DNA from: a bacterium
Lineage (GTDB): Bacteria; UBA8248
Reading direction: 5' to 3'
Assembly (NCBI GenBank): GCA_965204535.1
Contig: OZ241996.1
Location: 852,335 to 916,334 of the forward strand
DNA: 64,000 nt
Shown: one piece after another, positions 1 to 16,585 of the stretch
Position numbering within the stretch: position 1 is the first letter of the stretch
How the letters are laid out: each line of letters starts with the position of its first letter
The notes under the pieces: generated by a model
What the model saw: only the letters and a program-made list of their open reading frames with translations
Database searches by the model: none
Told to the model about the DNA's origin: nothing
Made by a program: the position numbers and the translations under genes

Positions 1-390
1 ATATGGCTCTTCAGTGCCTTGCAAGAAGACAGTGGCAGGTCAAGCAACCTACGCACGTTCACCGAGCCGAGATCAGCGCCGAGCTACACACCGCTTGCTC
101 CGGCATCGACACGGCAGACAGTTCTAGATTTCTCCAAACCTCCAGTTGGACAGTACAACGTGCTTTCTGTTGCGCAGATACGTTGGTGCCTTCGCGAAGT
201 TATCCAGATTGAAGTGCTCCGACCCATGCCTACCACGAATGCTCAAATTGAAAGGTTCAACGCGGTGGTTTCGGAATACAACAGTCGTTGCAGGCGTTTT
301 AGGTACAGGCGTGGAGCACTAGAACAGGCACGCCGAGAGGTAGAACAGCAGAGAGCGCAGATCGTCTCTAACGTGTCGCCGCCATGGTAA
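1..390 (+). CDS. hypothetical protein, probably 5'-partial at window edge
   Basis: Frame 1 has no stop from nt 1 to TAA at 388-390. The first start-like codon in the window is TTG at 19. Residues look ordinary (IRWCLREVIQIEVLRPMP, RREVEQQRAQI) but carry no motif I recognise. Confidence 0.3.
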   Translation: MWLFSALQEDSGRSSNLRTFTEPRSAPSYTPLAPASTRQTVLDFSKPPVGQYNVLSVAQIRWCLREVIQIEVLRPMPTTNAQIERFNAVVSEYNSRCRRFRYRRGALEQARREVEQQRAQIVSNVSPPW

Positions 391-1149
391 CGTAACTCAG
401 AGGCGTTGCAGAGCAACTCTACCCCCTCTACGCCGACGGAGCCAAGACGAAGAACCGGAGTAAGGCGCGACCAATGATTGCTTCGCTGCTGACGACCCGA
501 GAAGATGCGGCCTGCACGCAACGAAATCATCATCGCGCTTGGAATCTCGCTGCGTGGCTCGGGGATGCAGTTCTGGGGTTGGCGGGCTATGGTATATTCA
601 CGGATCGCAGGCAGAACGGGTGATTGGCGCGCTCATACGGACATCCTGCTAGCTCGCCGCTGCTAAGATGTATGCGGCGTAACCCGAAAGTCAAGCGCAG
701 CAGCGCCCGTGCGAAGTACAGCGGATGGTGCTCGTGCATGGTAGCGGGCCCGGCGTCGAGAGGCTTGCTATGGAGTAGGCCGAGCATAACAGCATCCAGC
801 AGATCGTCTACAAACTTGGCTGGGCTCGGCATGGGGACACCGCTGACTTTCGTCGCAATGATGAACTGCTAAACCTCCTGCCGAAGGGCATCCGTCCGCG
901 AGGGGATGTACCGACGAAGCCGGACAATGGATTAACCCGGAAACCCCACCAAAAGCGCAGAAATAAGCCGCTTTCATCAATACGCAACGGCGCATCCAGC
1001 GTTCCCGCCCCCCCGGTATCCGGTTTCGGGGGAAAAGGCATGACCCTCATCGCGCGCAGGCGCTTGCCTGTCGTAAACCCATCTATATTCCATTCGTTGC
1101 CCGATTGAAACCCTCATATTTTCGTATTATATTCGGTATTGTGGGACCG

Positions 1150-1848
1150 ATGGGAGCGCCAGCGGGAAATCCCCGGCGTCGATCCCGCGACACGCAGGGC
1201 CTGGAGAACACTTTTTTGGGAATCCGCAAACGAGACAGAAACCGCACCGGCTGGAGGGCTGTCCTGGATCCCGGCGTGTGGATCCGCTCGCTGCTCGTGA
1301 CGGCGGTCTTCGTCGTTTCCTTGTCGGCGCTGGCCTGCGCCGTGGGGCTCGCGCGCTACACGACGGGCCATGATCGGCATGCTACCTACAAGCTCTACTG
1401 GGCGGAAATTTTACTCGCGCTCAACTTCGACCCCCGCGCGCCAGTTGCCTACCGTACGAGTGAGGGCGAGGAAACGACGCTCCCCCGCGGCGAACTCATA
1501 TTCAGCGGCGATGCGCTGGTGGCGCGGAGCCACCTCGTTCGAACGGTGAAGCTGTCAGCGGAGCTCGGCGCCTGGTACGGCCTGGGCGCCGCGCTGATGT
1601 GCCTGGTGCTGCTCGGTTTGCAAAGAGCCGCACACGAGGGTCGGCCCGAATCGCCCGCGTTGCCCCGGAGGAGGCCGGGCCTCGATACATCGACACAAGC
1701 GGCCAAAACGCCCGTTCGCACACCGGCGGAACGGCCGCCGGGACCGGATGCCCCGCCGCCCTTAAAACCCAAGCTTGCCGGCAAGGGTCGCAGGAACGAA
1801 GCGGCGGCGCCCGAGCGCCGCGAGCGCGACTACGGGCGCTGGATCTGA
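1150..1848 (+). CDS. hypothetical membrane protein, translationally coupled to the relaxase gene
   Basis: ORF 1105-1848 has its first ATG at 1150 (start uncertain). Hydrophobic helices are LLVTAVFVVSLSALACAVGLA and LGAALMCLVLLGL, followed by a Pro/Arg-rich tail. Stop TGA 1846-1848 overlaps the relaxase ATG 1848-1850 (TGATG). Confidence 0.5.
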   Translation: MGAPAGNPRRRSRDTQGLENTFLGIRKRDRNRTGWRAVLDPGVWIRSLLVTAVFVVSLSALACAVGLARYTTGHDRHATYKLYWAEILLALNFDPRAPVAYRTSEGEETTLPRGELIFSGDALVARSHLVRTVKLSAELGAWYGLGAALMCLVLLGLQRAAHEGRPESPALPRRRPGLDTSTQAAKTPVRTPAERPPGPDAPPPLKPKLAGKGRRNEAAAPERRERDYGRWI

Positions 1849-4823
1849 TGGTCGCCTCGATAGGCGCGGTGGCGAGCCCTGCGCAGGGCGCGAACTATTA
1901 CGAGCGGGACGGCTACTACGCCAAGGACTCGACTGAGCACCGGGTGTTGAGCGCCTGGGCCGGCAGGGGCGCAGAAGCCCTGGGTCTTGAGGGCGCGGTC
2001 GACCCGGACGTGTTCCGGGCGGTGCTCGAGGGCGAGGTTCCGGACGGCTCGGGGCGGCGTCTCGGCCGCAGGGTTCGCGGCGGAGAGATCCATCACCGGC
2101 CCGGGCGCGACCTCACCTTCTCGGCGCCCAAGTCCGTATCCCTGGTCGCACTCATGGGCGGGGACGCGCGCATCGTCGACGCCCATGATCGCGCTGTTGT
2201 GCGGGCGCTTGAGTGGTTCGAGAGCAATGGGGCCGAGACCCGGATGCGGGACCCGGCTACCGGGCGGATGATCCGGGCCGGCGGCCAGAAGGCCGTGATC
2301 TCCACGTTCCGGCACGATACTTCCAGGAACCTCGACCCTGCGCTGCACACCCACTCGGTCATCGCCAACATGCTGCTCGGCGCCGACGGGAAGTGGAGGA
2401 CGATGGCGAACGAGCGCCTCTACGCCTCCAAGATGCTGTTGGGCGCGCTCTACCGGAGCGAACTCGCAGGAGAGCTTCAAAAGCTCGGCTACCGGATCGA
2501 GAAGACCCACGCCGACGGTCGGTTCGAGATCGGGGGCGTCTCGCGCGAGGTCGTCGAGGCGTTCTCGACGCGACGCGCCGAGATCGAGGCGGCGATGGAA
2601 GGCCGGGGCCATGGCGCCACGGCGGAGAACCAGCACCTCGCCCGCCGAGCGGCGCTGATGACACGCGCGCACAAGCGCGACGTCGACAAGGAGGCGCTGC
2701 GCGGGATCTGGGCGAAACAGGCCTCCGGGCTCGGCTTCGACGCGAAGGCGCTCGTCGCCTCGGCGGTGGAACGGGGATTGAGCGGCCCGCAGAAAGAGGG
2801 CCCACAAGCACTGGAAGCGGGCGGGGACGCTCCGCCCGGCGCGGCCCGGCAGGCGAATCTGTTCGAGCATCCGGCGCGGACGGAGCCTGCGAAGGAGGCC
2901 GTCGAGTGGGCGCTCGCCCACCTCTCGGAGCGCGATGCGGTGTTCGCGAGAACATATCTTCTCGCCGCGGCACTCGCTCACGGCCCGGGCTCCGCGTCCA
3001 TCGGAGCTGTCGAGCGGGCCGTCGAGGGTCTCACGCGCGAGGGCCGCGTACACGATGCGCCGGCTCTCAAGGGTGGCGACGGGCTGACTACGGACAGGGC
3101 CGTGGCCAGAGAGCGCGAGACGATTGCGCTCATGCGCGCGGGCTCGGGCCGGGGCAAGGCGGCGATGCGCGGCTGGATGGTCGAGCGGCATCTGCGCAAG
3201 GGGCCGCTCACGGCCGGGCAGAAACAGGCGGTGAAACTCATTCTTTCCGAGAAAGACCGGACCGTCGGCGTGCAGGGCTACGCCGGCGCCGGCAAGACCC
3301 GGATGCTCGATCGCGCAAGGACGCTTGCGGAGAAAAAGGGCTGGCGCGTCCTGGGACTCGCTCCCTCGGCGTCCGCGGTACGCACGCTGGAGGCGGAATC
3401 GGGGATAAAGAGCGAGACTTTGCAGCGGTTTCTGGCGCGAAACGAAGGCCTGGCCGAAGGCCGGCTCACGAAAAGCGCCGCAAAAAAGATGCGCGCCGCG
3501 TACTCCCAGACCGTGCTGGTGGTCGATGAGGGCTCGCTTGCGTCCACCGCCCAGGCCCGCGACCTGCTCCGGATCGCGGGCGCCCTGCGCATACCCAAGC
3601 TGGTGCTGGTCGGCGACGCCAGGCAACTCGAAGCCGTCGATGCGGGCAAACCCTTCGCCCAGCTCCAGGCCGCGGGCATGAAGACCGCGACGATGGACGA
3701 GATCCTCCGCCAGCGCGACCCCGATCTCAAGGCCGCGGTCGAGGCGAGCATCGCGGGCGATATCGGGCGCGCTTTTGAAAAACTGGGAAACAACGTCGCT
3801 GAAGTAAACCCCCAAAATATCGCAGGCGCCGTGGCGGCGAGATGGCTGAAACTCCCGCCCGAGGTGCGCGAGCGCACCGGGGTGATGTCGCCGGGCCATG
3901 AGCTGCGCGAGGCGATCAACGCCCATATCAGGGAGCGCCTCGTGCGCGAGGGCCGCGTCGCGGGTCCTGCGCTCAAGACGCAGCGGCTCGTTTCCAGGGG
4001 TTACACGAACGCCGAGAAGGCGCTCGCGGCCAACTACGCGCCCGGCGACGTGGTCGCCTTCCACCGCTCCTACAAGCGGCTCGGGGTCGAGAAGGGCGAG
4101 GAGCGTCGCGTCCTGGGCGTCGATCGCGAGCGCGGAAACGTCCGGCTCGAAGGCCCCGGGGGCACGATCGTGAACTGGAAGCCGTATCAAATCGGCGGGC
4201 GGCGGGGCGGGACCGAGGTCTACCGCACCGAAACCATCGAGCTCCGCGCAGGCGACCGGGTGCGCTGGACCCGGAACGACAAGGGGCTGGGACTCGTGAA
4301 CAGCGCCACAGCGGAGGTGTTCGGGGTCCGGAACGGGCGGGTGACGTTCACCCTGGAGGAAGGCCGCAGGCTCACACTGACCCCCGGCGACCCCCAACTG
4401 CGCCATCTCGATCGCGCCTGGGCCTCGACCGTGCACGCCTTTCAGGGGCGGACGGTGGATAACGTCATCGCCGCGATGGAGGCGAACCATCCCCACCTGA
4501 CCACGGCGAAGGCGTTTTACGTCGAGATATCGCGCGCCCGCGACCGGGCCGAACTCGTCACCGACGACGCGCAGGCGCTGAAAGAACGTCTCGAAACCGT
4601 GACCGGCGAGCGCATCTCCGCACTCGAGGGCATCGGCGAATCCGTCCGGCCGGAACCCGGGATCGACGGAAAGACGTCCCCCAAGCACGAACGAGGGAGC
4701 CCGGATGCCTCCATGCCGACTTCCCCCGAGGGGGAAATCGAACGGAAAGTGTCACTGGGCAGAGCGCCTGCGCCCGAACCTCCCTCCCCCGGCAAGCGCA
4801 TCGACATGGACCTCGGGCTCTGA
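1848..4823 (+). CDS. conjugative relaxase-helicase, TrwC/TraI (MOBF-like) family
   Basis: The start is taken at MVASIGAV (ATG 1848) inside ORF 1599-4823. The N-terminal relaxase has the Tyr cluster ANYYERDGYY and the His motif HDTSRNLDPALHTHSVIAN. The helicase has Walker A GYAGAGKTRML, Walker B LVVDEGSL and the C-terminal motifs HAFQGRTVD and YVEISRARD. Confidence 0.9.
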   Translation: MVASIGAVASPAQGANYYERDGYYAKDSTEHRVLSAWAGRGAEALGLEGAVDPDVFRAVLEGEVPDGSGRRLGRRVRGGEIHHRPGRDLTFSAPKSVSLVALMGGDARIVDAHDRAVVRALEWFESNGAETRMRDPATGRMIRAGGQKAVISTFRHDTSRNLDPALHTHSVIANMLLGADGKWRTMANERLYASKMLLGALYRSELAGELQKLGYRIEKTHADGRFEIGGVSREVVEAFSTRRAEIEAAMEGRGHGATAENQHLARRAALMTRAHKRDVDKEALRGIWAKQASGLGFDAKALVASAVERGLSGPQKEGPQALEAGGDAPPGAARQANLFEHPARTEPAKEAVEWALAHLSERDAVFARTYLLAAALAHGPGSASIGAVERAVEGLTREGRVHDAPALKGGDGLTTDRAVARERETIALMRAGSGRGKAAMRGWMVERHLRKGPLTAGQKQAVKLILSEKDRTVGVQGYAGAGKTRMLDRARTLAEKKGWRVLGLAPSASAVRTLEAESGIKSETLQRFLARNEGLAEGRLTKSAAKKMRAAYSQTVLVVDEGSLASTAQARDLLRIAGALRIPKLVLVGDARQLEAVDAGKPFAQLQAAGMKTATMDEILRQRDPDLKAAVEASIAGDIGRAFEKLGNNVAEVNPQNIAGAVAARWLKLPPEVRERTGVMSPGHELREAINAHIRERLVREGRVAGPALKTQRLVSRGYTNAEKALAANYAPGDVVAFHRSYKRLGVEKGEERRVLGVDRERGNVRLEGPGGTIVNWKPYQIGGRRGGTEVYRTETIELRAGDRVRWTRNDKGLGLVNSATAEVFGVRNGRVTFTLEEGRRLTLTPGDPQLRHLDRAWASTVHAFQGRTVDNVIAAMEANHPHLTTAKAFYVEISRARDRAELVTDDAQALKERLETVTGERISALEGIGESVRPEPGIDGKTSPKHERGSPDASMPTSPEGEIERKVSLGRAPAPEPPSPGKRIDMDLGL

Positions 4824-4915
4824 ACACAGCACGCTAGGGCACGATTCCCGGGTTCCCACAAAGAATTCTGTCTATAAACAGGCCTGCGGCGCACAGGTTG
4901 CGCCGCCTCATGCGT

Positions 4916-5302
4916 TCACTCAGGGCCTTCATCCATGGTCTCGGCCATCGTTTTTCGGGCTGCGGCGATGAGGTTCTCCAACTCTTTCCTCCGCCCTTCG
5001 TCGAGCAATCGTCCCCGATCCAGGGTCGCCATCATGTAGACCATGCGGTAGACGGCCTCGATGAGGGCGGCGTGTCCGGACGACAAGGTGGCCGCGGGAG
5101 GCTCGTCGAGCCGCTCCTGGGCGGCGGCGACAGCACCGGAACGGACGAGTTCGCCGGCCGATATGCCGTGCAACGCAGCGGCCCTTTGAACCAGACGCCA
5201 CTCGGAATCCAGGAAGCGGATGGAGTGCGGCCGACGCGTATCGCTGCTGTTTTCTGCCGGTTTGTTTCTTTTTCCGGGCTGTTTCTGATCGTTTCGCGTC
5301 AT
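4916..5302 (-). CDS. ribbon-helix-helix-like relaxosome accessory/regulator protein (putative)
   Basis: The start is taken at MTRNDQKQ (ATG 5302) within ORF 4916-5548. The RHH-like beta-strand/helix is HSIRFLDSEWRLVQRAAALHGISAGELVR. The architecture matches the protein at 28640-29008. The gene is convergent with the relaxase. Confidence 0.5.
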   Translation of the reverse strand: MTRNDQKQPGKRNKPAENSSDTRRPHSIRFLDSEWRLVQRAAALHGISAGELVRSGAVAAAQERLDEPPAATLSSGHAALIEAVYRMVYMMATLDRGRLLDEGRRKELENLIAAARKTMAETMDEGPE

Positions 5303-5540
5303 TTTTTTCGCTTCCTCAGGACGGGATCTGTCAACGAAATGGAACGAATCGATCGCGATTTCGGTTCCGGTACGGCTCGTTTCGGGCGAAAACCAGGACC
5401 TATCCGGGGCCGTCGACGCATGATTCAACGTCCCGCCTTCAGGGTCTTGCGGCCGTCTGCGAGAGGGTTCTCCGCGCAGGTGGCAACCCCGGCGTACCGC
5501 GAAACGGCCGGTATCGGGAGCATTCAATCGCATTGCGCAG

Positions 5541-5559
5541 CGTAACACGTCGTGTTACG
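5541..5559. repeat. 19-bp perfect palindrome cgtaacacg-t-cgtgttacg upstream of the RHH gene
   Basis: Read directly from the sequence. It lies about 240 bp upstream of the RHH start in a non-coding stretch and is a candidate operator or oriT inverted repeat. Confidence 0.6.
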
Positions 5560-5636
5560 TGATTCCACCGATTGCGACCAGACTGGTATCTTTGCGCGAC
5601 ATGCGCAGCCATGCCCCGTCAGGGATGAGAATGGGC

Positions 5637-5657
5637 GTGTATGCTCTGAGCATACAC
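5637..5657. repeat. inverted repeat gtgtatgct-ctg-agcatacac
   Basis: Read directly: 9-bp perfect arms with a 3-nt spacer, in the same non-coding region as the 5541 palindrome. Confidence 0.6.
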
Positions 5658-5753
5658 TCGAACCGCGATAAGCCTGTCGCCCCGTGTCGTCGTTTGAGCA
5701 GGAGACTGCAGGACATGCGCGCGCCTGGTCTGTACCCCGCAGCCCGCTGCGTT

Positions 5754-6965
5754 CCGGTGTGAAACCCGAAGCGCCGAAGGGCGGCTAACGGCGGATTCTT
5801 GGGAACGAACGACAGGGGAATTTTCGCCGGAGAGAATGGCGAGCGGGAGCCGCCGCGGCGCTTGAGCGGACAGAGCGAGGGGCAAGAGGGGTGAGGGTGC
5901 TGAACCTTGCGCCTGGATTCACAAGCGGCGGGCGTACAGGGCGTTACAACTTGCGCTTTTTATCACAAGCAGACGAACGACACGGGAAACAGCGGGCCGC
6001 GCCGCAGGTGTTGCCGCTGCGACGCGACCCGTGGAATGCGCGCATCAAGCCGCGACGCGCTGAACGGGAATGCCGAGGGTTTTCGCCTTGTCGACGAGGT
6101 TGTCGGTGATGCCCGAGCCGGGGAAGGCGATCACGCCCTTGGGGAGGAGGCTGAGCAGCTCGTCGTTGCGGCGGAAGGGAGCGGCCCTGCCGTGGGCGTC
6201 CCAGTCGGGCTTGCAGACGACCTGGTGGACGCCGTTCCGCTCGGCCCATCCTGCCGCAATCTTCTCGGCGCCGGGGCCGCCACCGTGGACGAGGACGACG
6301 TCGGCGTACTTGGCTTTCAGCTTGTCGAGCTGGCCGATGATCTTGCCCGCGTCGGTGGCTTCCTTGCCGCCCGCGACGGCCACGAGCGTTCCCTGGGGGA
6401 GGTGGGCCGTGTTCTCGCGGTCCTTTTTTGCGCGCTGGAAGTCACGCGCTTCGATCACCGCCGACGTGAGCTTGCCGGTCTGAGAGACGTGCGATCCCCG
6501 CCTCGGGCGCCAGACCTCGCCGGTCTCGACGCGGTAGGCCTCTGCGGCGGCGTCGCGCAGTCCTTCGAAGGCGTCGCGGCGGGCGGTGAGATTCCCGGCC
6601 CGGTCGGTGGCGAGTTCGAGTTCGCGGGAGCGGATCTCGGAGCCGTCCTGTTCGCGCTGGAGTTCACGGATGCCGGGGATGAGCTTGTCGGCGGCGCGGT
6701 CGAGCCGCTGTGTCTGGGCGTCCAGGGTGTTGACGAAGCCCCACAATAGGCTCGCCCGCTCGTCGGCAAGCTGCGTGCCGTCGGGTGCGGCCTCGGCGAG
6801 TGCGCCGAAGGCCTTGAGGACGGCGGCGGTGGCTTCGGTCTCGCCCCAGACGGGCCGGTTGTCGAACTCGTCGGGGCCGGGGGTCGCGCCGAAGAGGGCG
6901 GCCTGCTCGCATACCATGGCGGTGAAGGTTTCGTTCTGCGCTTCGTGTTCCGCGTGCTCGTGCAT
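5754..6965 (-). repeat. left copy of a homologous block (DUF2493 gene plus about 290 bp conserved downstream non-coding DNA), inverted relative to 25180-28267
   Basis: The DUF2493 proteins differ at about 16 of 306 positions by eye. The downstream non-coding DNA (ttgtgata...gaatccaggcgcaaggttcagcac...ttcggcgcttcgggtttcacaccgg) is shared by both copies. Confidence 0.8.
6045..6965 (-). CDS. DUF2493 (SLOG/DprA-like Rossmann) domain protein typical of conjugative elements
   Basis: The start is taken at MHEHAEHE (ATG 6965, RBS AAGGAGAG upstream). The C-terminal motif is VVLVHGGGPGAEKIAAGWAERNGVHQVVCKPDWDAHGRAAPFRRND...VIAFPGSGIT. The paralog is at 25180-26100. Confidence 0.8.
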   Translation of the reverse strand: MHEHAEHEAQNETFTAMVCEQAALFGATPGPDEFDNRPVWGETEATAAVLKAFGALAEAAPDGTQLADERASLLWGFVNTLDAQTQRLDRAADKLIPGIRELQREQDGSEIRSRELELATDRAGNLTARRDAFEGLRDAAAEAYRVETGEVWRPRRGSHVSQTGKLTSAVIEARDFQRAKKDRENTAHLPQGTLVAVAGGKEATDAGKIIGQLDKLKAKYADVVLVHGGGPGAEKIAAGWAERNGVHQVVCKPDWDAHGRAAPFRRNDELLSLLPKGVIAFPGSGITDNLVDKAKTLGIPVQRVAA

Positions 6966-7025
6966 GATGCTCTCCTTGTGGTCGTGTGTCGCGGTGGCGT
7001 TCATCGTTCACTCCTTTCGTTGTTC

Positions 7026-7614: not shown

Positions 7615-9380
7615 GGGACGCTAAGAGAGAGAGGGTAGTACCGCCACCGGGACACAAGAGCCTCTGGTGTTTCACGATGAAGGCGAAGCTCATCGGGAAA
7701 CAATCTCTTATGCTGCGGAAAGGGTCATTTCGGGCCGTTTTTCCGGCCCGAAATTCCCGCAGCGGGGGGTAGATCGAGCCACTATTCAGAATATGGGATG
7801 ATTGCAGGTCCAAGCCGATCTTCCGGGAACATGGTTCATCGTTCACGGAACCGGAGATTTACCGGGTGCTCCCGGTAGACGAGAGATGGGGTAATCGGGT
7901 TGGCCCTCGAACTACCGCGTGTAGCGGATGTTCCTCTGTCATATGATCGAGGCGAGGCCGGGATGGCTCCGGTGTCTCTCGCCCGCAGGAGGAGCAGCCA
8001 TGAACTACTTTGCAGGACTCGACGTGTCGTTGGAGTGGACGAGTGTGTGCGTGGTGGACGTGGACGGCGGGATCGTCCGGGAGGCGAAGGTCGCGAGCGA
8101 ACCCGCGGCCCTCGCGGCGTTCTTCACCGGGCTGGACTTCGGCGTGAAGCGCATCTGCCTCGAGGCGGGGCCGCTGTCGCAGTGGCTCCATGACGGCCTG
8201 GCCGAGGCCGGGCTCCCGGTGGTTTGCGCCGAGACGCGGCAGTTGAAGGCGGTGCTCTCGGCCACGGTGAACAAGAGCGACCGCGACGACGCGCGCGGGA
8301 TCGCCCAGCTGGTTCGCGCGAACCTGATTCGCCCGGTGCACGTGAAGACGGTGTCGAGCCAGGAGAAACGCATGCTCCTCGCCAACCGCAGGTTCATGCT
8401 GAAGCAGTTGTGCGACGCCGAGGCCCACATCCGGGGCACGTTGCGCAACTTCGGACTGAAGATGGGCAAGGTCTCCCGCCGCGGGCTGGAGGCGCGGGTA
8501 GGGGGTCTGGTCGCGGATCGCCCGGAGTTGGCGCGCCTGGTGGCGCCGATGCTGCGGGCTCGCTCTGCGTTGCTGGCGGAATACGTCCGGCTGCACAGGA
8601 TGATGCTGGAGGCGGTGCGCGTCGACCCGGTCTGCCGTCGCCTGATGACGGTCCCCGGCGTGGGTCCGGTGACGGCGCTGACCTTCCGGGCGAGCGTCGA
8701 CGTGCCGTCGCGTTTTGCGCGCTCGCGCTCGGTGGGCGCGCACTTCGGGCTTGTGCCTCGCAAATGGCAATCCGGAGAGGTCGACCGAACGGGAAGAATC
8801 TCCAAGTGCGGCGACGCGATGATGCGCGCGGCGCTCTACGAAGCCGCCAACGCCTTGCTCGGGCGCACGACGCGGTGGTCGTGGCTGAAAGCCTGGGCGA
8901 TGGGTGTGGCGAAGCGTCGCGGCAAGGCGCGCGCGAAGGTTGCGCTCGCCCGCCGGCTCGGCGTCATTATGCACCGCATATGGATGGACGGCAGTGAGTT
9001 CCGCTGGAAACGCGACGGCGTGGATGACGTAGCCTCCTGACATCGGGAATCCAAAAGGAGAAGAATCCGAAAATTACAGTAGCTTCCGCTATGGCAGAGG
9101 ATGCTCCCGTGGGGACGAGGGACGAGGTGAGTTCGCTGTCGGCTCAGTTCCGCTCCGTCGGTGACGGTGCGAGGGCGTATGAGAGATTGTTCCACCTCGT
9201 TCTCCGACCCCATCCTGTTGACGGCCCCGGACCGGGAGCCGATCACGTAGAGAAGCGAGACCCCCATGGAGCATCGTCTAAAGCCAAGGCGGAAAGATCC
9301 GGAAAAACCAGGGCAGAGGAACTTGACTTGCTCGTCCCGATTAGAGAAGAGCCGACAGGGCGGACCTCCTCTGGATAAGG
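7615..9380 (+). mobile_element. IS110-family insertion sequence (maximal interval only; true ends not mapped)
   Basis: The transposase CDS is 8000-9040. The element must lie between the DUF4326 promoter region and the ssb terminator. This family lacks obvious terminal inverted repeats, so I could not place the ends by eye. Confidence 0.4.
8000..9040 (+). CDS. IS110-family (DEDD) transposase/recombinase
   Basis: The start is at MNYFAGLDVS (ATG 8000, RBS AGGAGG 7987-7992). The N-terminus is the typical GLDVS...ICLEAG and the C-terminal part has PGVGPVTALT...SGE...ISKCGD. Confidence 0.9.
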   Translation: MNYFAGLDVSLEWTSVCVVDVDGGIVREAKVASEPAALAAFFTGLDFGVKRICLEAGPLSQWLHDGLAEAGLPVVCAETRQLKAVLSATVNKSDRDDARGIAQLVRANLIRPVHVKTVSSQEKRMLLANRRFMLKQLCDAEAHIRGTLRNFGLKMGKVSRRGLEARVGGLVADRPELARLVAPMLRARSALLAEYVRLHRMMLEAVRVDPVCRRLMTVPGVGPVTALTFRASVDVPSRFARSRSVGAHFGLVPRKWQSGEVDRTGRISKCGDAMMRAALYEAANALLGRTTRWSWLKAWAMGVAKRRGKARAKVALARRLGVIMHRIWMDGSEFRWKRDGVDDVAS

Positions 9381-9420
9381 AGCAAAGAAAAAGGGGTCGA
9401 CGCCGAAGCGCCGACCCCTT
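9381..9420 (-). terminator. rho-independent terminator downstream of ssb
   Basis: On the minus strand the stem aaggggtcg / cgacccctt, with inner pairing, is followed by a tttttctttg run directly after the ssb stop. Confidence 0.6.
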
Positions 9421-9426
9421 GTGAGC

Positions 9427-9867
9427 CTAGAACGGGATGTCGTCCCCGGCTACGCCAGCGGCCACCGCCTCGGCGTGCGCGCCGTTGCCGTTACCGTTGC
9501 CATTGCCGTTCCCGTTCACCTTGTCGAGGAACTGCACGCGCCCGCCCGGTGCGATGAGGATCTCGGTCGAGAACCGATCGGAGTCCTCATCGTCCTTCTT
9601 CCAGCGCCTAGTCTGGAGCTTGCCCGCGACGTAGATCAGGCGGCCTTTCTTCGCGTGCCGCTCGAACATGTCCACCAGCCCGGGCTGGAAGGTAACGACC
9701 CGGTGCCACTCGGTCTTGTCCACCCGCTCGCCGGACTGCTTGTCGACGTAGCCCTCGTCGGTCGCGATGGAAAGATTCGCGACGCGCCCCCCGCTCGCGA
9801 GGTGGTTGATGGTGACGTCGGCGCCGAGACGCCCGATCAGTTCCGCTCTGTTGAGTCCGAATGCCAT
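9427..9867 (-). CDS. ssb: single-stranded DNA-binding protein
   Basis: The OB-fold N-terminus is NRAELIGRLGADVTINHLASGGRVANLSIATDE. A (Asn-Gly)6 linker follows, then the canonical acidic tip DDIPF. RBS AAGGAG is present. Confidence 0.95.
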   Translation of the reverse strand: MAFGLNRAELIGRLGADVTINHLASGGRVANLSIATDEGYVDKQSGERVDKTEWHRVVTFQPGLVDMFERHAKKGRLIYVAGKLQTRRWKKDDEDSDRFSTEILIAPGGRVQFLDKVNGNGNGNGNGNGAHAEAVAAGVAGDDIPF

Positions 9868-9948
9868 TGTAGTACTCCTTCAGGTTGTGGTGTGGATGAT
9901 GAAGTGGAAGGGACCGGGAAGCCTCTCTCCCCGATCCCCCGATCTGCC

Positions 9949-10095
9949 CTATTCCCTCCTGAACTCCTCCTCGCCCCCCGTCTCCGGGTGGAGCGCCTCG
10001 GCGCGCAGCTTGCGGATCGTGTACGCGTCGAGTCCGATCTCGGCGAGCAGTTCGTCCGTGGTGGGAACGTCGACGTCGAAGTCGTTCTCGTACAT
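9949..10095 (-). CDS. small acidic hypothetical protein (48 aa, below the ORF-track cutoff)
   Basis: Hand translation gives MYENDFDVDVPTTDELLAEIGLDAYTIRKLRAEALHPETGGEEEFRRE. RBS GAGGAGG lies upstream of ATG 10095 and third codon positions are GC-rich. Confidence 0.3.
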   Translation of the reverse strand: MYENDFDVDVPTTDELLAEIGLDAYTIRKLRAEALHPETGGEEEFRRE

Positions 10096-10780
10096 GGTCC
10101 AGCCTCCTCTGGGGTTGTCGCCGGCGGCGGGAGCTGGAGACCGTCTCCCTCTCCCCTGCCGGGCCTTTGCCCGGCTCCCCGCTTCGCTCCACCTCTGCCC
10201 CGGGAAGGTTCACCGCCGCTCATGACCGCCCGTGGATCTAGAGCGGCCTCCGTCCCGACCGGGTAGTCCCGGAGGGGGAAGGGAGCGGAAGCCCACCCGG
10301 GCCGGTGCGCCGTCAGGGATTCGGATGGATGAGGGGTGGGTGAATGGAGGCGTATCGAGTGGCGGGACTTCCGATGCGGGGTTGTCGGCGACCGCGGCGA
10401 CAGGGACGGCGGTGTCACGGTGGCGGGAATGCTCTGCCGGGTTGCGGCCTCCCCGTGTGGTCGTATCCGGTCCCGCAGCCGGACTCCCTGCCCGCCGGCC
10501 TGCGGGGCGCGCCCGGGTCCGGTTGACGGCGCAGCGGGGTGTCCTTCCCCCCGCCCCCGATGGGAAAGAACCCGGACGGCTCCAGGTCGGCGACCCCCCG
10601 GCGCGGGTTATGGGGTGGCGGCTCCCGCGGTGGCGCGTTCGGGGCCGATGCCGGCGGCGGGACGGCTGCGCAGCAGGGCGGCGCCGAACCCTCCCCCCGG
10701 TCGGGTCCGTCCCCCCCACCGGCGGCAGGCCGGCTGCAAGTGCAGGCCCGGCCCTGAGCCGGCGCTCACTCCCACGCGCT

Positions 10781-10864
10781 GATTATGTTGAGTAAATAGT
10801 TATGGAGAGTTGAGAGGTTCCGGCCCCGCCGGCACTGGCCTTCGGGGCCGGGGTACTCTCCATA
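10781..10864. repeat. RIT terminal inverted repeat (left)
   Basis: gattatgttgagtaaatagttatggagagttgagaggttccggccccgccggcactggccttcggggcc is the exact reverse complement of 14405-14473. It contains the internal hairpin tatggagagt...actctccata with a nested ggccccg/cggggcc stem. Confidence 0.85.
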
Positions 10865-10865
10865 G

Positions 10866-11864
10866 TTATGTGACCCTTGCGTCTCTGAGAATCGCCATCA
10901 ACCTGTCGGGCGCGTTTTTGAAGGAACCCTTCCTGATGCCGGGCGGCAGCCCGGCTGCAAGGATGTCGAACTTCTCCGCCGGGTCGGCTCGAAGATAGGC
11001 TTCGGTGCTTTGTATACCGGCGTGTCCCAGCCACAGGGACACCTTTCGGATGTCGCCTGTGGCTTCGAGCGTGTGCATGGCGCAACTGTGGCGCAGGACG
11101 TGGGGAGAGACGCGCTTGCCGGACAATGACGGCGCATTGCGCCGTGCGGTTTCGACGTGCAGGGCCAGTCGATGCGCGAAGCCATGCCGGCTCATCGCCG
11201 CGCCCCTGGCGTTGAGGAAGAGGTGGTCGTCCCCCCGGTCGGTCCGGATGGCCAGCCAGTCGCGCACAGCTGCTTGCGTCACCTTCCATAGCGGGAGCAC
11301 GCGCCGACGCCGCCCCTTGCCGGTGACATGAACCGTTTCGAGGCCGTGTCCGAGGTCGCTGCAGACCAGGCCGATGAGTTCCGATACCCTCAGAGCGGCG
11401 GCATAAGCGAGATGAAGCATCGCCCTGTCGCGCACGCCTGCCGCGGTCGAGGCCTCGGGCGCATCGAGGACGGCCTGCAGCTCGTCACGCTCGAGGTAAT
11501 CAACGATCGCCTCATCGAATCGCTTCAAAGGGATGGCGCTTATCCCTCCAGCGAGGTCGAGACAGGCCGGGACCCTGTACTCGATATAGCGGAAGAAGGA
11601 CTTGAACGCCCCAAGCCGCAGGTTGCGCGTGCGAACGCTGTTCCCGCGCTCGGTCTCGATATGATCGAGGAAGTCGAGGATGAGTTCGGGGGTGAGCTGT
11701 TCGATCCAGAGTTTGCAGGGCCGGACGCCCAGCCGCCCGGCGGCGAAGCGGACCAGCAGTTCGAAGGCGAAGGAGTAGCTTTCGACCGTATGCCGGCTGG
11801 CGCGCCGGTCACGAGGGAGGTGCTCGCGGAGGAACGCGGCGATGTGGGGAGCGAGTTCGGTCAT
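10866..11864 (-). CDS. tyrosine recombinase, third gene of the RIT trio
   Basis: The start is at MTELAPHIAAF (ATG 11864), overlapping the upstream stop (ATGA). Catalytic motifs are HVLRHSCAMH and LGHAGIQSTEAYL. Confidence 0.85.
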   Translation of the reverse strand: MTELAPHIAAFLREHLPRDRRASRHTVESYSFAFELLVRFAAGRLGVRPCKLWIEQLTPELILDFLDHIETERGNSVRTRNLRLGAFKSFFRYIEYRVPACLDLAGGISAIPLKRFDEAIVDYLERDELQAVLDAPEASTAAGVRDRAMLHLAYAAALRVSELIGLVCSDLGHGLETVHVTGKGRRRRVLPLWKVTQAAVRDWLAIRTDRGDDHLFLNARGAAMSRHGFAHRLALHVETARRNAPSLSGKRVSPHVLRHSCAMHTLEATGDIRKVSLWLGHAGIQSTEAYLRADPAEKFDILAAGLPPGIRKGSFKNAPDRLMAILRDARVT

Positions 11865-12778
11865 GGCGACCCCCTTTCCATGTGAGCGTTCTCCGCTGTT
11901 CGAGCGACTTGCCGAAGCAGCGCCGGCGTGGTTTCGAGATACCAGTACGTGCTCGACACACGCGTGTGTCCCACATAGGTGGTCAGCGCCAGCATGTGCC
12001 GGTTCACGCTGTCCCTGTCCGTCGCGACCGCGTCTTCGAGGGAGCGTACGCAGAAGCTGTGGCGCAGGTCGTGGAGCCGCGGGCCGCGCCTGCCCCGAAG
12101 CCCGGTCCGGCGGGCGAGTTCGATGAACTGTCTGGTCAGGTATCCGGGACACGGGGAGCGGCCGGTCGAGACGACGAAGAGGTGGTCGTCGGACCCGCCG
12201 ACGCGTTTCCTGATCGTCAGGTATCGATCGAGGGCGTCGCGCGTGGTTTCATGGAGTGGGACGAGCCGGCTCTTCCGGAACTTCGTTTCCCGGACGATCA
12301 GCCCGTCGGGGGTGATGTCGGACAGCCTCAGCTTCAGCGCCTCGGAGCGGCGCAGGCCCGTCACCGCCATCAGCCCGATCATGTAATGGCAGGTATGGGG
12401 CGTGATCGAGCCGGCAGGTCCCAGGGACAACGCCGCCTCCATGATTCGCCCGATTTGCTCTCGCGTCATCAGGCGCGGCGGGGGCCTTCGCGGTCTCGTT
12501 CGGTCGGGCACGGCCCGTGGAGGCACCTCGTGGCGCTCGTCCTCGGCGTGCAGCCAGACGGCGAAGAGGCGTACAATGGACAGCCTGTTGTATATGCTTG
12601 CAGGCGAGGGCGCCTCGTTGGCCCAGCCGAGTATCGTGTCGTTGCGGGTGAAGCGCTCGCCGCGCGCCATGGCGCGGGCGGCAAATGCCCGCAGCGACTG
12701 TTCCCACCACGTGGGCTTGTAGCCCAACCTCCGCCTGAACGCGGCGTAACGTTCGACATGGTCTCTCATGGTGCTCAT
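11861..12778 (-). CDS. tyrosine recombinase, second gene of the RIT trio
   Basis: The start is at MSTMRDHVERY (ATG 12778), overlapping the upstream stop (ATGA). Motifs are HDLRHSFCV and VGHTRVSSTYWYL. Confidence 0.85.
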   Translation of the reverse strand: MSTMRDHVERYAAFRRRLGYKPTWWEQSLRAFAARAMARGERFTRNDTILGWANEAPSPASIYNRLSIVRLFAVWLHAEDERHEVPPRAVPDRTRPRRPPPRLMTREQIGRIMEAALSLGPAGSITPHTCHYMIGLMAVTGLRRSEALKLRLSDITPDGLIVRETKFRKSRLVPLHETTRDALDRYLTIRKRVGGSDDHLFVVSTGRSPCPGYLTRQFIELARRTGLRGRRGPRLHDLRHSFCVRSLEDAVATDRDSVNRHMLALTTYVGHTRVSSTYWYLETTPALLRQVARTAENAHMERGSP

Positions 12779-14343
12779 CGCAGGCCTCCTATCCAGGGCT
12801 GCGCTACCTCTCGCAGCATGCTTACATCGACCTTGGCGTAGATGGTCGTGGCGTCCGGCGAACGGTGGCGAAGCAGGGCGCCGATGCTCTCCAGCGACGC
12901 CCCGGCGCGAAGAAGACCCGTTGCGGCGGAATGGCGCAGCAGATGAGCGCCCCGCCCGCCGGGACTTTCCACGCCGGCCCGCCGCAGCGCCACGGACACG
13001 ATCTGGGATATCTGTCCGGAGCAACTGAACGGCCGGTAGGGCGGGAGAACGCGCAGGAAGACCTTCTCTTCGTCCACCCTCGGGCGCGCATGCTCGATGT
13101 AGTCCAGCAGTGCGTCGCCGGCGTCCTGGGGAAGCGGCAACCGCACCGCTCGCTTCGATTTCCCGCTGACGATGAGCCGCGCGTTTTGCCAGTCGATGTC
13201 GCTCAGACGAAGGCCGGAGACGTCGCCCGCCCGCAGGGCGAGCCGGGCAAGCAGCAGCAGGATGGCCCGGTCCCGCATGCCCTTTCGCGTCCCCAGGTCA
13301 CAGGAGTCGATCACGCGCTCGACCTCATCGAGGGGCAGATAGCGGGGCAGCGTCGAGAGGCGCCACCCCGGAGCCTTCGGAACGGCGCCGAGCAGGCTCG
13401 GCCGGCAATCCCCCTTCGAGGCCAGGAACCGCAGATACATCCGCATGGTTCCGGCCAGCCTTTTTCCTTCTCCCGGGGAGAGTTTCGCGAAGTGGCGCAG
13501 CAGCACGTTCCTGATCAGGCGCGCGTCGTAGCGGCCCGGATCGTCGCCGAGTTCCGCAACAGGCGGGGAGATTTTCCTGACATGCGCCCGTATGGTGCGT
13601 TCGCCGATGCCGCGATGATGCTTCAGCCAGGCGCGGAACTCACCGAAGCCCGCCTCCGGGTCGTTGCCGGCGGCCAAGGCGGCGCGCGGCGCCGCTCCCC
13701 GCCCGGCGAGGAATTTCACGAACTGCTCGACCGGCGCCTCGCGTCGCTTTTGGGGAACGTCCGGGCGGCGTCTATGGAATCCAACAAAACGCAGGCACAG
13801 GCACTCATGCCCGACGAACTCTTCCACCGTGCCCGCGTCAATCTCCTTCATCGCGAGCCGCGAACCATGGAGCCAAACGAGGAAGTGCCGGCATGCACTC
13901 CGGTACGACCTCAGCGTTTTGGATGCGTAACCCTCCGCCCGGCGCCGGCTCAGGAACTCCTCCAAAAGTCGAAAGCCCTCGTCGAGTTCCCCCGGATGCG
14001 GAATGCGACCGCTCTCCTCGAGGAACCGCACCAGCCGGACAGCCCCCGACACGAACTCCCGGCAGCGCCTCGCGTCTCCCTTGCAAGGATCACCGCGTTT
14101 CTTCCGCTCACACGGGCAATTGTGATGGCGAAAACGCCGCAATACGGTGTCATCGATTGCTTCGAGCGCCGTACCCTCCCTTTCCAGCCAGATCAGGAAG
14201 TGCCGTGCCGAAGGGCGAAGCTGGGCGATTCGACGCTCGGACAATCCCTCTCGCCTCAGGTGTTCCACGAACTCCGATAGGCATCCAGACCATGGTTCTC
14301 CGGCCTCGTGCGGCAACGCCGCGTGTCGCGTCTCTTGTGACAT
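12775..14343 (-). CDS. tyrosine recombinase, first and largest gene of the RIT trio
   Basis: 522-aa ORF with two SAM-like N-terminal core-binding repeats (HFLIWLEREG, HFLVWLHGS). Catalytic motifs are HLLRHSAATGLL and LRHRSPDATTIYAKV. Confidence 0.85.
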   Translation of the reverse strand: MSQETRHAALPHEAGEPWSGCLSEFVEHLRREGLSERRIAQLRPSARHFLIWLEREGTALEAIDDTVLRRFRHHNCPCERKKRGDPCKGDARRCREFVSGAVRLVRFLEESGRIPHPGELDEGFRLLEEFLSRRRAEGYASKTLRSYRSACRHFLVWLHGSRLAMKEIDAGTVEEFVGHECLCLRFVGFHRRRPDVPQKRREAPVEQFVKFLAGRGAAPRAALAAGNDPEAGFGEFRAWLKHHRGIGERTIRAHVRKISPPVAELGDDPGRYDARLIRNVLLRHFAKLSPGEGKRLAGTMRMYLRFLASKGDCRPSLLGAVPKAPGWRLSTLPRYLPLDEVERVIDSCDLGTRKGMRDRAILLLLARLALRAGDVSGLRLSDIDWQNARLIVSGKSKRAVRLPLPQDAGDALLDYIEHARPRVDEEKVFLRVLPPYRPFSCSGQISQIVSVALRRAGVESPGGRGAHLLRHSAATGLLRAGASLESIGALLRHRSPDATTIYAKVDVSMLREVAQPWIGGLR

Positions 14344-14389
14344 TTGCGTTCTCCTCTCGCTGTGAATGGGCAGAGGAGAACCATATTAT

Positions 14390-14473
14390 TATGGAGAGTA
14401 TTCTGGCCCCGAAGGCCAGTGCCGGCGGGGCCGGAACCTCTCAACTCTCCATAACTATTTACTCAACATAATC
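14390..14473. repeat. RIT terminal inverted repeat (right)
   Basis: Reverse complement of 10781-10864. The outer 69 bp are identical and the inner 15 bp have 3 mismatches. Confidence 0.85.
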
Positions 14474-14474
14474 A

Positions 14475-14500
14475 CTGCTATGTAGAGCTCTACATAGCAG
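14475..14500. repeat. 26-bp perfect palindrome ctgctatgtagag|ctctacatagcag abutting the RIT end
   Basis: Read directly. It starts 2 nt from the RIT inverted repeat and contains the TAG stop (14490-14492) of the Zn-ribbon gene. Confidence 0.9.
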
Positions 14501-15296
14501 CGAGTGTTGCCATAGGCGACTGGTCGGTAAGCACCTCGACCTCATCCCGTGAGAGTTTGCTGAACGCGAGGCACATCGCCACCTCCTCCCAGGAGTCGAG
14601 AGGTCCGTGCTCGGCGCCCGTGGCTAGTTCGACCACGGTGTAGCACGGCGGATGGATGGGCATCCCCTTGTGCTCGCTTGATGAGAGATACGATCGGCGC
14701 GCGCAGGGAGTGCATCTCACCCCTGCGTCCGCATCGACGCCGCAGTCGACGCAACGCCTGCGTGCCCGCCTGTCGCGATAGCGTTTCCTGCTCGCGGCGT
14801 TCTTCTTCGTTGAACGGGATTGCTCGCGCGCGGCGCAGGCTTCGCACCTGGAAGCTCCTGCGAAGACCTCTCCTCCGCACCGACCGCATCGCCCACCGGC
14901 GCGCCTTTCGGCGTAGAGTTTCTTCTCGCTCGCGCGCCTCGTCTCCCGGCAGGGTTCGCAGACGGCGCCGTCCTCGACGGGCTCGCGTCCGCAGCGCGGG
15001 CACAAGCCGGCTTCCACCCGCTCGCGCCTGCGCTTCCTCGCCCTCTCGCGCGCCATGCGGCGGCGGCTCTCGGGGCAGCGTCCGCCATATTGCGCTCCCT
15101 CTGCTTTTGCCTCCTGGTAGCGGGCGCGCCCGGCGGCACGTTCCCTCTCGCCGCAGGGTTCACAGACCCTGCGCCCGGGGGCAGGCCGGTGTTTGCCGCA
15201 CTTGGGGCACAAGCCTTGCGCGCGTCGCTCGGCGGTGCGTTTGCGGTGGCGCTCGCGCTCATAAGCGCGTCGCCTCTCCGGGTCCCTGTGTGGCAT
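14490..15296 (-). CDS. Arg-rich protein with four tandem CxxC-Xn-CxxC zinc-ribbon repeats
   Basis: The start is at MPHRDPERRR (ATG 15296, RBS GGGAGGGA). Repeats are CPKCG..CEPCG, CPRCG..CEPCR, CGRCG..CEACA and CVDCG..CTPCA, each preceded by basic RxxYxxxR helices. A non-repetitive C-terminal domain follows. Confidence 0.65.
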   Translation of the reverse strand: MPHRDPERRRAYERERHRKRTAERRAQGLCPKCGKHRPAPGRRVCEPCGERERAAGRARYQEAKAEGAQYGGRCPESRRRMARERARKRRRERVEAGLCPRCGREPVEDGAVCEPCRETRRASEKKLYAERRAGGRCGRCGGEVFAGASRCEACAAREQSRSTKKNAASRKRYRDRRARRRCVDCGVDADAGVRCTPCARRSYLSSSEHKGMPIHPPCYTVVELATGAEHGPLDSWEEVAMCLAFSKLSRDEVEVLTDQSPMATLAAM

Positions 15297-15388
15297 CCCG
15301 TCTCCCTCCCTGGGATGGATGGAATCGTTCGGCCGGCGCCGGGCCGGCGAGACGTCTTGCGGGCGGAAGTCCTCCGGGGGGGAGTTCC

Positions 15389-15688
15389 TCACCGGGTGAG
15401 CATCCGGGCCCACACGAGGTGCTCGCCCCAGAGCTGAAGCCCGCTGCCGGGGACCCGGAGCCCCGTGCAGACGATGAGCTCGTCGCGTGCGGGCCGCATC
15501 TCCCGGACCGCCCTGCGCGAGGCGGTCACGCGTTTCCTTCTGCGGCCTGCCTTGTCCCGGGCTGGCACGGGCCTGATCTTGCCCCCCTCTGCGGATCTGT
15601 AGCGTTCCACGGCGTATCGCTCGTCCGCCAGGCCCAGGGTGAAGAGATGGGTGAGGAAGGTGTCCGCTTCCGGTCTGGGTTTCCGCAT
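15389..15688 (-). CDS. hypothetical protein (99 aa)
   Basis: The ORF has strongly G/C-biased third codon positions on hand translation. No recognisable motif. Confidence 0.45.
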   Translation of the reverse strand: MRKPRPEADTFLTHLFTLGLADERYAVERYRSAEGGKIRPVPARDKAGRRRKRVTASRRAVREMRPARDELIVCTGLRVPGSGLQLWGEHLVWARMLTR

Positions 15689-15864
15689 CGCGCGCCTCCT
15701 TGTAAAGGGGTGGATGATGGCGGCGAAGAACGTCCTCTCCCCGACGCCCCTCCGCCGCCCCCTCCCGGCCGGACTCCGCCTCTCGGGGGCGCAGAGCCAC
15801 CCCGTCGGCGGGAAAGACGGCGGTCCGGTTGTTCAGGGGAGTCTTCGTTCGGCCTGGGGGCCTT

Positions 15865-16206
15865 CTACGGGAAGGGTGCGTCCGGGTCCTGGCTGAACAG
15901 TTCCTCCTCCTCGGCATCGCGGCGCCAGGCGTAGCGTCCCGTCCGGGCGGACCACTCGAAGTCCTCTTCTTTCCTGTCGGGCAGTTCGTAGCGAGCGAAG
16001 GCGGACCAGTCCCCGTGGCGGAACCCCCGCCACAGGACGCACGAAAGAGCCGTGAGGAGGCCCCAGAGAGCCGCAGAGATCCAGACGGCCCCCAGGTGGC
16101 GGAGGCCGCTACCGGCCGCGAGAAGGAGAATTGTGGCGAGGAGCGCTGTGGCGGGTCCCGCGAGTACGAGCAGCCTCGCGGAGCGGGATGGATTGTTCTT
16201 CGTCAT
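15865..16206 (-). CDS. small membrane protein (2 predicted TM helices)
   Basis: Helices are LLVLAGPATALLATILLLAA and VWISAALWGLLTALSCVLW, followed by an acidic tail. Confidence 0.5.
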   Translation of the reverse strand: MTKNNPSRSARLLVLAGPATALLATILLLAAGSGLRHLGAVWISAALWGLLTALSCVLWRGFRHGDWSAFARYELPDRKEEDFEWSARTGRYAWRRDAEEEELFSQDPDAPFP

Positions 16207-16585
16207 GGCCGTGCCTCCAAGGTTGCGGGCGTGTGGACTGCGGGGGCGCCGCCCGGCCTCTCCGGCCCCGGCTCCCGCGCCCCCTCACGGCCCGCCTCTG
16301 CCTCTCGCCGGTGCAGTGCGCGGTCCGGCGAAAAAAATATCGCACCCCAGCACAGTTGGTCGTATGCGAGTCCGCGTATGGCGCGCAGGTGTTGGAAACT
16401 GGATATCGAAAACTCTTGCAAACGGGCGGCTTTTGTTTTATTTCCGTCCTAAGTGCGGACGGTGCGGATTCCCGTCTGTATGACGCGGAACGGACGAAGG
16501 AGATGAAAGCCGGACAGTTGCGCAAGAAAAGTGGAAACCTGGACAGGTATCGGACTCTCGATTGCGGTGTGATGTGGAGGAGATT

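Follow-up and report, generated by a model that had tools for sequence, protein, structure and literature searches.

A full-length recombinase-in-trio element with arm-bearing inverted repeats inserted into a conjugative module of a UBA8248 bacterium

The stretch of bacterial DNA analysed here, 64,000 nucleotides of contig OZ241996.1 (assembly GCA_965204535.1, positions 852,335 to 916,334; GTDB lineage Bacteria; UBA8248) and hereafter called the window, carries a full-length recombinase-in-trio (RIT) element in which three tyrosine-recombinase genes follow one another in the order ritA-ritB-ritC between inverted repeats of 93 nt (Table 1). RIT elements are already known as a class and the window copy is a new intact member of an abundant subfamily with a long RitA protein. 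The evidence as a whole is probably best explained by insertion of a RIT and an Xer-like exchange at 6-bp sequences, or hexamers, by way of a circle with a palindromic junction.

An earlier sequence-only reading of this DNA had claimed three tyrosine-recombinase genes chained by ATGA overlaps at 12775-12778 and 11861-11864. All three proteins matched Pfam Phage_integrase (E-values, in the order reported, of 2.5e-25, 4e-18 and 3e-30) and possess the full catalytic set, and both overlaps were confirmed in the list of open reading frames (ORFs) and in the sequence. The catalytic residues fall into invariant alignment columns and are R371, K395, H467, R470, H493 and Y502 in RitA, R143, K166, H236, R239 and H271 together with Y278 or Y280 in RitB, and R159, K183, H255, R258, H281 and Y290 in RitC. 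The best NCBIfam matches were the XerC/XerD models TIGR02224 and TIGR02225, with scores far under the model cut-offs. Grouping with the RitA, RitB and RitC clades had been set beforehand as a test. The maximum-likelihood tree comprised 15 trios, including those of pHG1 and pSymA (SMa1617 region) and 11 further trios found through RitA, to which the two Xer proteins of the host were added as outsiders. Each of the three groups, gene-1, gene-2 and gene-3, was monophyletic (support 100/100 for RitA, 100/100 for RitB and 100/99 for RitC), and the window proteins were placed inside the matching clades with their counterparts from pHG1 and pSymA. RITs have been described as units of about 3.5 kb whose ends bear an inverted repeat and a palindrome, made up of three genes with short overlaps of 4-8 bp, each belonging to its own protein family (Van Houdt 2012; PMC3414803). 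Gene order and the 4-nt overlaps agree with this description, which supports the identity of the window element as a RIT. Every feature of RIT membership that could be checked was found.

The element resembles the RITs of C. metallidurans CH34, C. necator pHG1 and S. meliloti pSymA (SMa1617; Van Houdt 2009/2012) in its three overlapping tyrosine-recombinase genes A-B-C. It is also like them in its size (about 3.5-3.7 kb; 3695 bp from repeat to repeat here), in the inverted repeats and palindrome at its ends and in the absence of cargo; the ORF list and Pfam gave no further ORF with a family match inside the unit. Two differences stand out. The inverted repeats measure 93 nt in the window RIT as opposed to the 28-34 bp quoted in the RIT literature (PMC10214605, PMC3414803), and RitA has 522 residues whereas the pSymA and pHG1 proteins have 409-412, a difference caused by an extra N-terminal module. 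RitA of the nearest relative in a representative genome is just 49% identical.

Residues 117-521 of RitA align to the entire pSymA RitA with 48% identity, and residues 17-144 align a second time to the first 137 residues of the pSymA protein (29% identity, E = 1e-12). The AlphaFold2 model of RitA (predicted local distance difference test, pLDDT, 76.8) places four-helix modules at residues 19-110, 120-214 and 229-320 ahead of the catalytic domain, and its closest PDB folds are XerA, XerD and XerH. Alignment and model thus indicate that RitA is a long form whose N-terminal part includes a third core-binding-like module. RitA proteins are marked by having more than one such domain, two according to Smyshlyaev 2021 (PMC8138268); the window protein has three modules, a form that goes unmentioned in those portions of the RIT literature that were examined. 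The long form is common: at E <= 1e-20 a word-index search gave 4,630 proteins, of which the 120 top-scoring ones all have about 510-530 residues. The first two modules have in common a conserved H...H-x-C-x-C pattern, formed by H48, H74, C76 and C78 (residues 48-78) and by H153, H179, C181 and C183 (residues 153-183). Judged from the pattern, these residues may form a zinc site, which would be unusual for core-binding domains of tyrosine recombinases. For RitC, an extra conserved C-terminal helix is described in PMC8138268. The window RitC has a conserved tail of about 40 residues after the catalytic Tyr290, and its model contains a terminal helix at residues 321-331 with a pLDDT of only about 72.

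The host genome contains nine copies of the 3' end of the gene that the element interrupts: one with the RIT, one with a solitary pair of arms and seven empty. At the empty sites, which comprise these seven and many further copies in the same genus, the flanks are contiguous (...GCTGCCTGGGAGTGA...) and the protein ends in ..AAWE*. On the minus strand the filled site of the window reads ..ACAC-TCGCTG-(CTATGTAGAG.CTCTACATAG)-CAGTGA-(TTATGTTGAG..ritABC..CTCAACATAA)-TCAGCG-CGTGGGAGTGA. Compared with the empty paralogous sites, the filled site has gained a block from about 10777 to 14497 (3721 bp), which goes 26 nt past the ritA-side repeat. The inverted repeats had been taken as the bounds of the element; they are real, but the inserted DNA is larger. 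At its end the host gene has lost W-E-stop and gained M-stop. A classical target-site duplication was rejected for the window copy; at most GC is shared, and crossover or coupling hexamers of 6 bp are preferred. The trio is flanked on one side by genes for a single-stranded DNA-binding protein (ssb), a YAcAr protein and a TrwC relaxase, and on the opposite side by further conserved genes of a conjugative module, and this placement would suit an integration module of the surrounding conjugative element rather than a separate element. We regard this explanation as scarcely credible, since none of the eight other modules in the genome, nor the modules of related genomes, has a trio at this position, and since the trio has inverted repeats of its own and is also found in unrelated contexts.

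Each terminal repeat is built on a 10-bp arm motif, YTATGNNGAG, present as two direct arms and one inverted arm. The motif occurs nine times in the window, as opposed to 2.2 expected occurrences, and eight of the nine lie in the element ends. The repeats are 94% complementary and their outer 70 nt are identical, one more than the 69 bp given in the sequence-only reading, which had also seen the last recombinase stop touch the left repeat; the ritC stop codon (10866-10868) indeed sits within it. Conservation of the inverted repeats at other copies, named there as a check, was borne out by relatives with RitA identities of 92% and 73%, in which the repeats as well as the arms are kept. In relatives at 40-49% RitA identity the terminal repeats are 89-106 nt long. 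A comparison of short-RitA elements found, with the settings used, only a 15-nt inner repeat in pSymA and no repeat in pHG1.

The repeats had further been described as hairpin-forming. In the clade of the window element this holds in silico: as single-stranded DNA the two repeats fold at -21.8 and -21.7 kcal/mol (z-scores of -5.4 and -6.3), as well as which none of 200 shuffles folded. A GC stem and the pairing between the second arm and the inverted inner arm give rise to the fold-back, which recurs in the relatives L043 and L024/L025 and in the G020 lineage. Such folding, which the sequence-only reading had noted, is at the heart of a proposal, suggested by Nielsen 2017, that the element moves as a folded strand. 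The intermediate would be hairpin-capped and linear or single-stranded. In most lineages the back-to-back arm pair has GAGCTC or a close variant of it at its centre, and this centre would serve as a site of the telomere-resolvase type or as a lox-like 13-6-13 site. The finding of exonuclease-protected RIT DNA without any circle-junction read pairs (Nielsen 2017) points the same way. However, the description fails in the sister clades L032/L033 and L035/L036, where the inverted inner arm is present but not complementary to the second arm and the repeats do not fold (z-scores of -0.95 to +0.63). This indicates that the placement of the arms is conserved and not their base pairing. In addition, GAG belongs to every arm as its conserved distal portion, so that its conservation calls for no special central site, and the palindrome around the pair reaches into target-specific hexamers, as fits flanking crossover sites. 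The result of Nielsen 2017 would also be explained by a palindromic circle junction, because a palindrome of about 220 bp would escape short-read junction mapping. Since arm placement rather than pairing is what is conserved, we rank movement through hairpins below exchange at duplex cores and consider it quite unlikely.

Evidence for exchange at duplex cores comes from the arrangement of hexamers and arms. The hexamers S1, S2 and S3 (Table 1) occupy the three positions at which arms are turned towards each other with their TTATG ends, and the arm pair together with S1 and S2 makes up a palindrome of 32 nt (16+16 nt, 94% complementary). At the position of S1 the empty copies of the host's own genome have TTGCTG, TCACCG, TGACCG and similar sequences, and at the position of S3 the relative with 92% RitA identity, L039, has TCGCTG. 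S2 is the exact reverse complement of S1 in L043, L038, L024 and L052. S1 and S3 are identical, and both are the reverse complement of S2, in L043 (TGACCG/CGGTCA/TGACCG), L038 (GACGTA/TACGTC/GACGTA) and L052 (TCCCGG/CCGGGA/TCCCGG). The window hexamers TCGCTG, CAGTGA and TCAGCG are alike but non-identical, and those of L053 are likewise non-identical. An arm pair was found at exactly one end in nine of the 11 relatives for which both flanks were available. It stands on the ritA side in the window, L024 and L027 and on the ritC side in L031, L033, L036, L038, L042 and L043. The same core of the pair is present in a separate RIT lineage of the same genus with 42% RitA identity, and two copies of that lineage in genome G020, 99.97% identical over 3482 bp, lie at different loci with the pair at opposite ends. 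The pair also adjoins the repeats of RITs in further targets and lineages. Some of these end features, namely the arm pair and the long repeats, may already be in print.

In L043, which has 73% RitA identity, the same codons of the same gene family are interrupted and the same pair is present, with ritABC reversed. Opposite orientations in one target, as well as the mutual inversion of S2 and S3, which predicts inversion between both sites, would be accounted for by a resident module in which the repeat-bounded ritABC flips in place between the pair-side core and the opposite end and rarely or never moves. We judge this improbable, as the seven empty paralogous sites show gain by insertion, the near-identical G020 copies lie at different loci and relatives occur in unrelated targets and phyla. 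Inversion may take place alongside transposition.

In the preferred explanation, insertion with Xer-like exchange at the hexamers, the three recombinases would bind the arms and swap strands across the hexamers, like XerC/D at dif. The dif arm is TTATGTTAAAT. We take the element arms, which end in TTATG beside a 6-bp spacer, to resemble dif half-sites and the layout of an Xer core. The mobile form would be a circle in which the junction has the order repeat-hexamer-pair-hexamer-repeat and forms a palindrome of about 220 bp with two equivalent cores. Depending on which core is used for integration, the pair would come to lie on one side of the element or on the opposite side, which would explain why it stands at exactly one end and on either side. 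Like the coupling sequences of Tn916 or Tn554, the hexamers would be exchangeable, with a swap between element and target each time the element moves. The non-identical hexamers of the window and L053 suggest such carry-over between sites, as it is known for the 6-bp sequence of Tn554 and strand-biased circularizing elements (SE) (PMC10214605). Each recombinase may serve a different arm position, RitA with two or three DNA-binding modules, and the extra RitA modules together with the three arm positions may explain the need for three recombinases. Only tentatively do we extend this to RITs at large, which would then transpose via a circle with a perfect palindromic junction of about 220 bp and two Xer-type cores, with swapping of hexamers and one recombinase for each arm position.

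When public metagenome contigs were scanned for the predicted junction, two were found to read repeat-6-pair-6-repeat, and these lend the circle junction weak support. Several observations weigh against our explanation. Both contigs end within the palindrome and are possibly fold-back assembly artefacts. The relatives L035 and L039 are devoid of an arm pair. Laboratory transposition has not been reported for any RIT (PMC10214605). The window RIT is present as a single copy in its genome: a DNA search found no second copy in this genome and 40 relatives, and no copy was found at the DNA level in 22 other genomes of the genus. Moreover, its hexamers differ from each other and its repeats differ at 6 of 93 positions, from which the window copy may be old or inactive. 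The element could accordingly be a decaying relic that no longer moves, an explanation favoured by its isolation and by repeats that are only 94% identical where many relatives have 100%, and by the imperfect hexamers. We consider it doubtful, because none of the three ORFs is disrupted, each encodes a complete catalytic set, the overlaps have been preserved, no arm among the eight is damaged, and a metagenome that derives from a close relative of the host contains the relative with 92% RitA identity. The term "intact copy" used in the sequence-only reading applies to all three ORFs but not to the repeats, which have diverged by 6%, nor to the three junction hexamers.

The best family and fold matches of the proteins (TIGR02224 and TIGR02225; XerA, XerD and XerH) liken the element to XerC/XerD-dif and to integrative mobile elements exploiting Xer (IMEX), such as CTX phage. 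In contrast to the Xer-exploiting elements, the window RIT encodes its own three recombinases, has three-arm arrays at each end plus the pair and does not target dif. Conjugative transposons of the Tn916/CTnDOT type tolerate non-identical coupling sequences of 6-7 bp at their junctions, in keeping with the unlike hexamers of the window and L053, whereas those transposons have a single integrase plus Xis and neither arm arrays nor a trio. Tn554, SE elements and GInts (PMC10214605, PMC5385486) are similar in being tyrosine transposons with several recombinases; they differ in a third or fourth protein that is not a recombinase (TnpC, Srap, Tfp, GinC/D), in carrying cargo and in having no long inverted repeats. 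Only three recombinase ORFs were found between the window repeats, which sets the element apart from this group.

RITs are widespread, with more than 4,600 homologues at E <= 1e-20 for the long type of RitA alone. The window copy is useful since it is intact, its joints are fixed by seven empty sister sites and relatives are inserted in the same target in either orientation. Empty sites and two-orientation relatives together define a minimal mobilisation substrate, consisting of the two repeats, the arm pair and the hexamers, and they suggest which junction is to be expected. If true, the palindromic circle would provide a concrete and testable mechanism for a class of transposons that has never been mobilised in the laboratory.

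Table 1. Features of the RIT element and its insertion site (window coordinates).
Feature	Position	Strand	Remarks
S1 hexamer TCGCTG	14498..14503	-	Left junction; target-derived; last codons of the interrupted host gene; position present in empty paralogues
Back-to-back pair of 10-bp arms CTATGTAGAG.CTCTACATAG	14478..14497	.	20 bp; no paralogous empty site has the pair
S2 hexamer CAGTGA	14472..14477	-	Between pair and outer arm; 5/6 match to the reverse complement of S1
Terminal inverted repeat, ritA side	14382..14474	-	Outer arm, second arm, GC stem, inverted inner arm
Outer arm TTATGTTGAG	14462-14471		In ritA-side repeat
Second arm TTATGGAGAG	14445-14454		In ritA-side repeat
Inverted inner arm CTCTCCATAA	14389-14398		In ritA-side repeat
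ritA	12775..14343	-	522 aa; three N-terminal four-helix modules (predicted), then catalytic domain; Pfam, tree, internal duplication, AlphaFold2, PDB folds
ritB	11861..12778	-	305 aa; ATGA overlap with ritA; Pfam, RitB clade
ritC	10866..11864	-	332 aa; ATGA overlap with ritB; Pfam, RitC clade, conserved tail, modelled terminal helix
Terminal inverted repeat, ritC side	10780..10872	+	Same three arms; holds ritC stop codon
S3 hexamer TCAGCG	10777..10782	-	Right junction; followed by target sequence CGTGGGAGTGA
Interrupted host gene	14490..15917	-	Uncharacterised Cys/Arg-rich protein of multi-copy conjugative module; start codon uncertain
Window site in predicted empty form			..TCGCTG-CGTGGGAG..

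The interrupted host protein gave no Pfam or NCBIfam match. Of the conjugative module around the RIT, the TrwC relaxase (1599-4823), the YAcAr protein (6045-7004) and ssb (9427-9867) were located in the flanks. The module family immediately surrounding the element (window 9348-10362 and 14533-16464) is present in up to about 10 diverged copies of 70-90% identity per genome. This load of paralogous modules resembling integrative and conjugative elements is unusually high and genus-wide, with many loci in the genomes G000 and G002-G022.

The solitary arm pair in the host genome, CTATGTAGAG.CTCTACATAA at G000:C2:1670090 (L044 about 6080-6110), is located at the 3' end of a degenerate paralogue of the target gene (..MATLIAM*). 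Beyond it lies a 3.1-kb low-GC island (L044 6110-9200) with HEPN_Swt1-like and SIR2_2 proteins, followed by a TrwB/TraD coupling protein. The pair may have been left behind by a former RIT or by a rearrangement that a RIT mediated. Its interpretation as a clean excision footprint was rejected because unrelated low-GC DNA comes after the pair and RIT arms are missing at the far side of the island.

The relative with 92% RitA identity, L039, is a metagenome scaffold with flanks 94-96% identical to the window genome, and judging by this identity a sister RIT resides in an organism closely related to the host. Its right junction is normal. Its left flank (positions 1-1007) is unrelated and matches DNA about 6 kb upstream of the target in an empty paralogue (G000:C2:2958355-2960057). 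A 6-kb deletion adjacent to the RIT is not a safe interpretation, as the scaffold may join the flanks of two copies. The trios of L042 and L043 are intact. In L041 (ERZ25068448 contig_65), a copy of the relative with 73% RitA identity, ritC is interrupted, leaving a fragment of 164 residues and an inserted ORF on the reverse strand. Finally, the microbial-mat contig L055 (8.6 kb) carries several nested or tandem RIT trios or fragments at positions 1-6800 and begins inside a repeat-6-pair-6-repeat palindrome.

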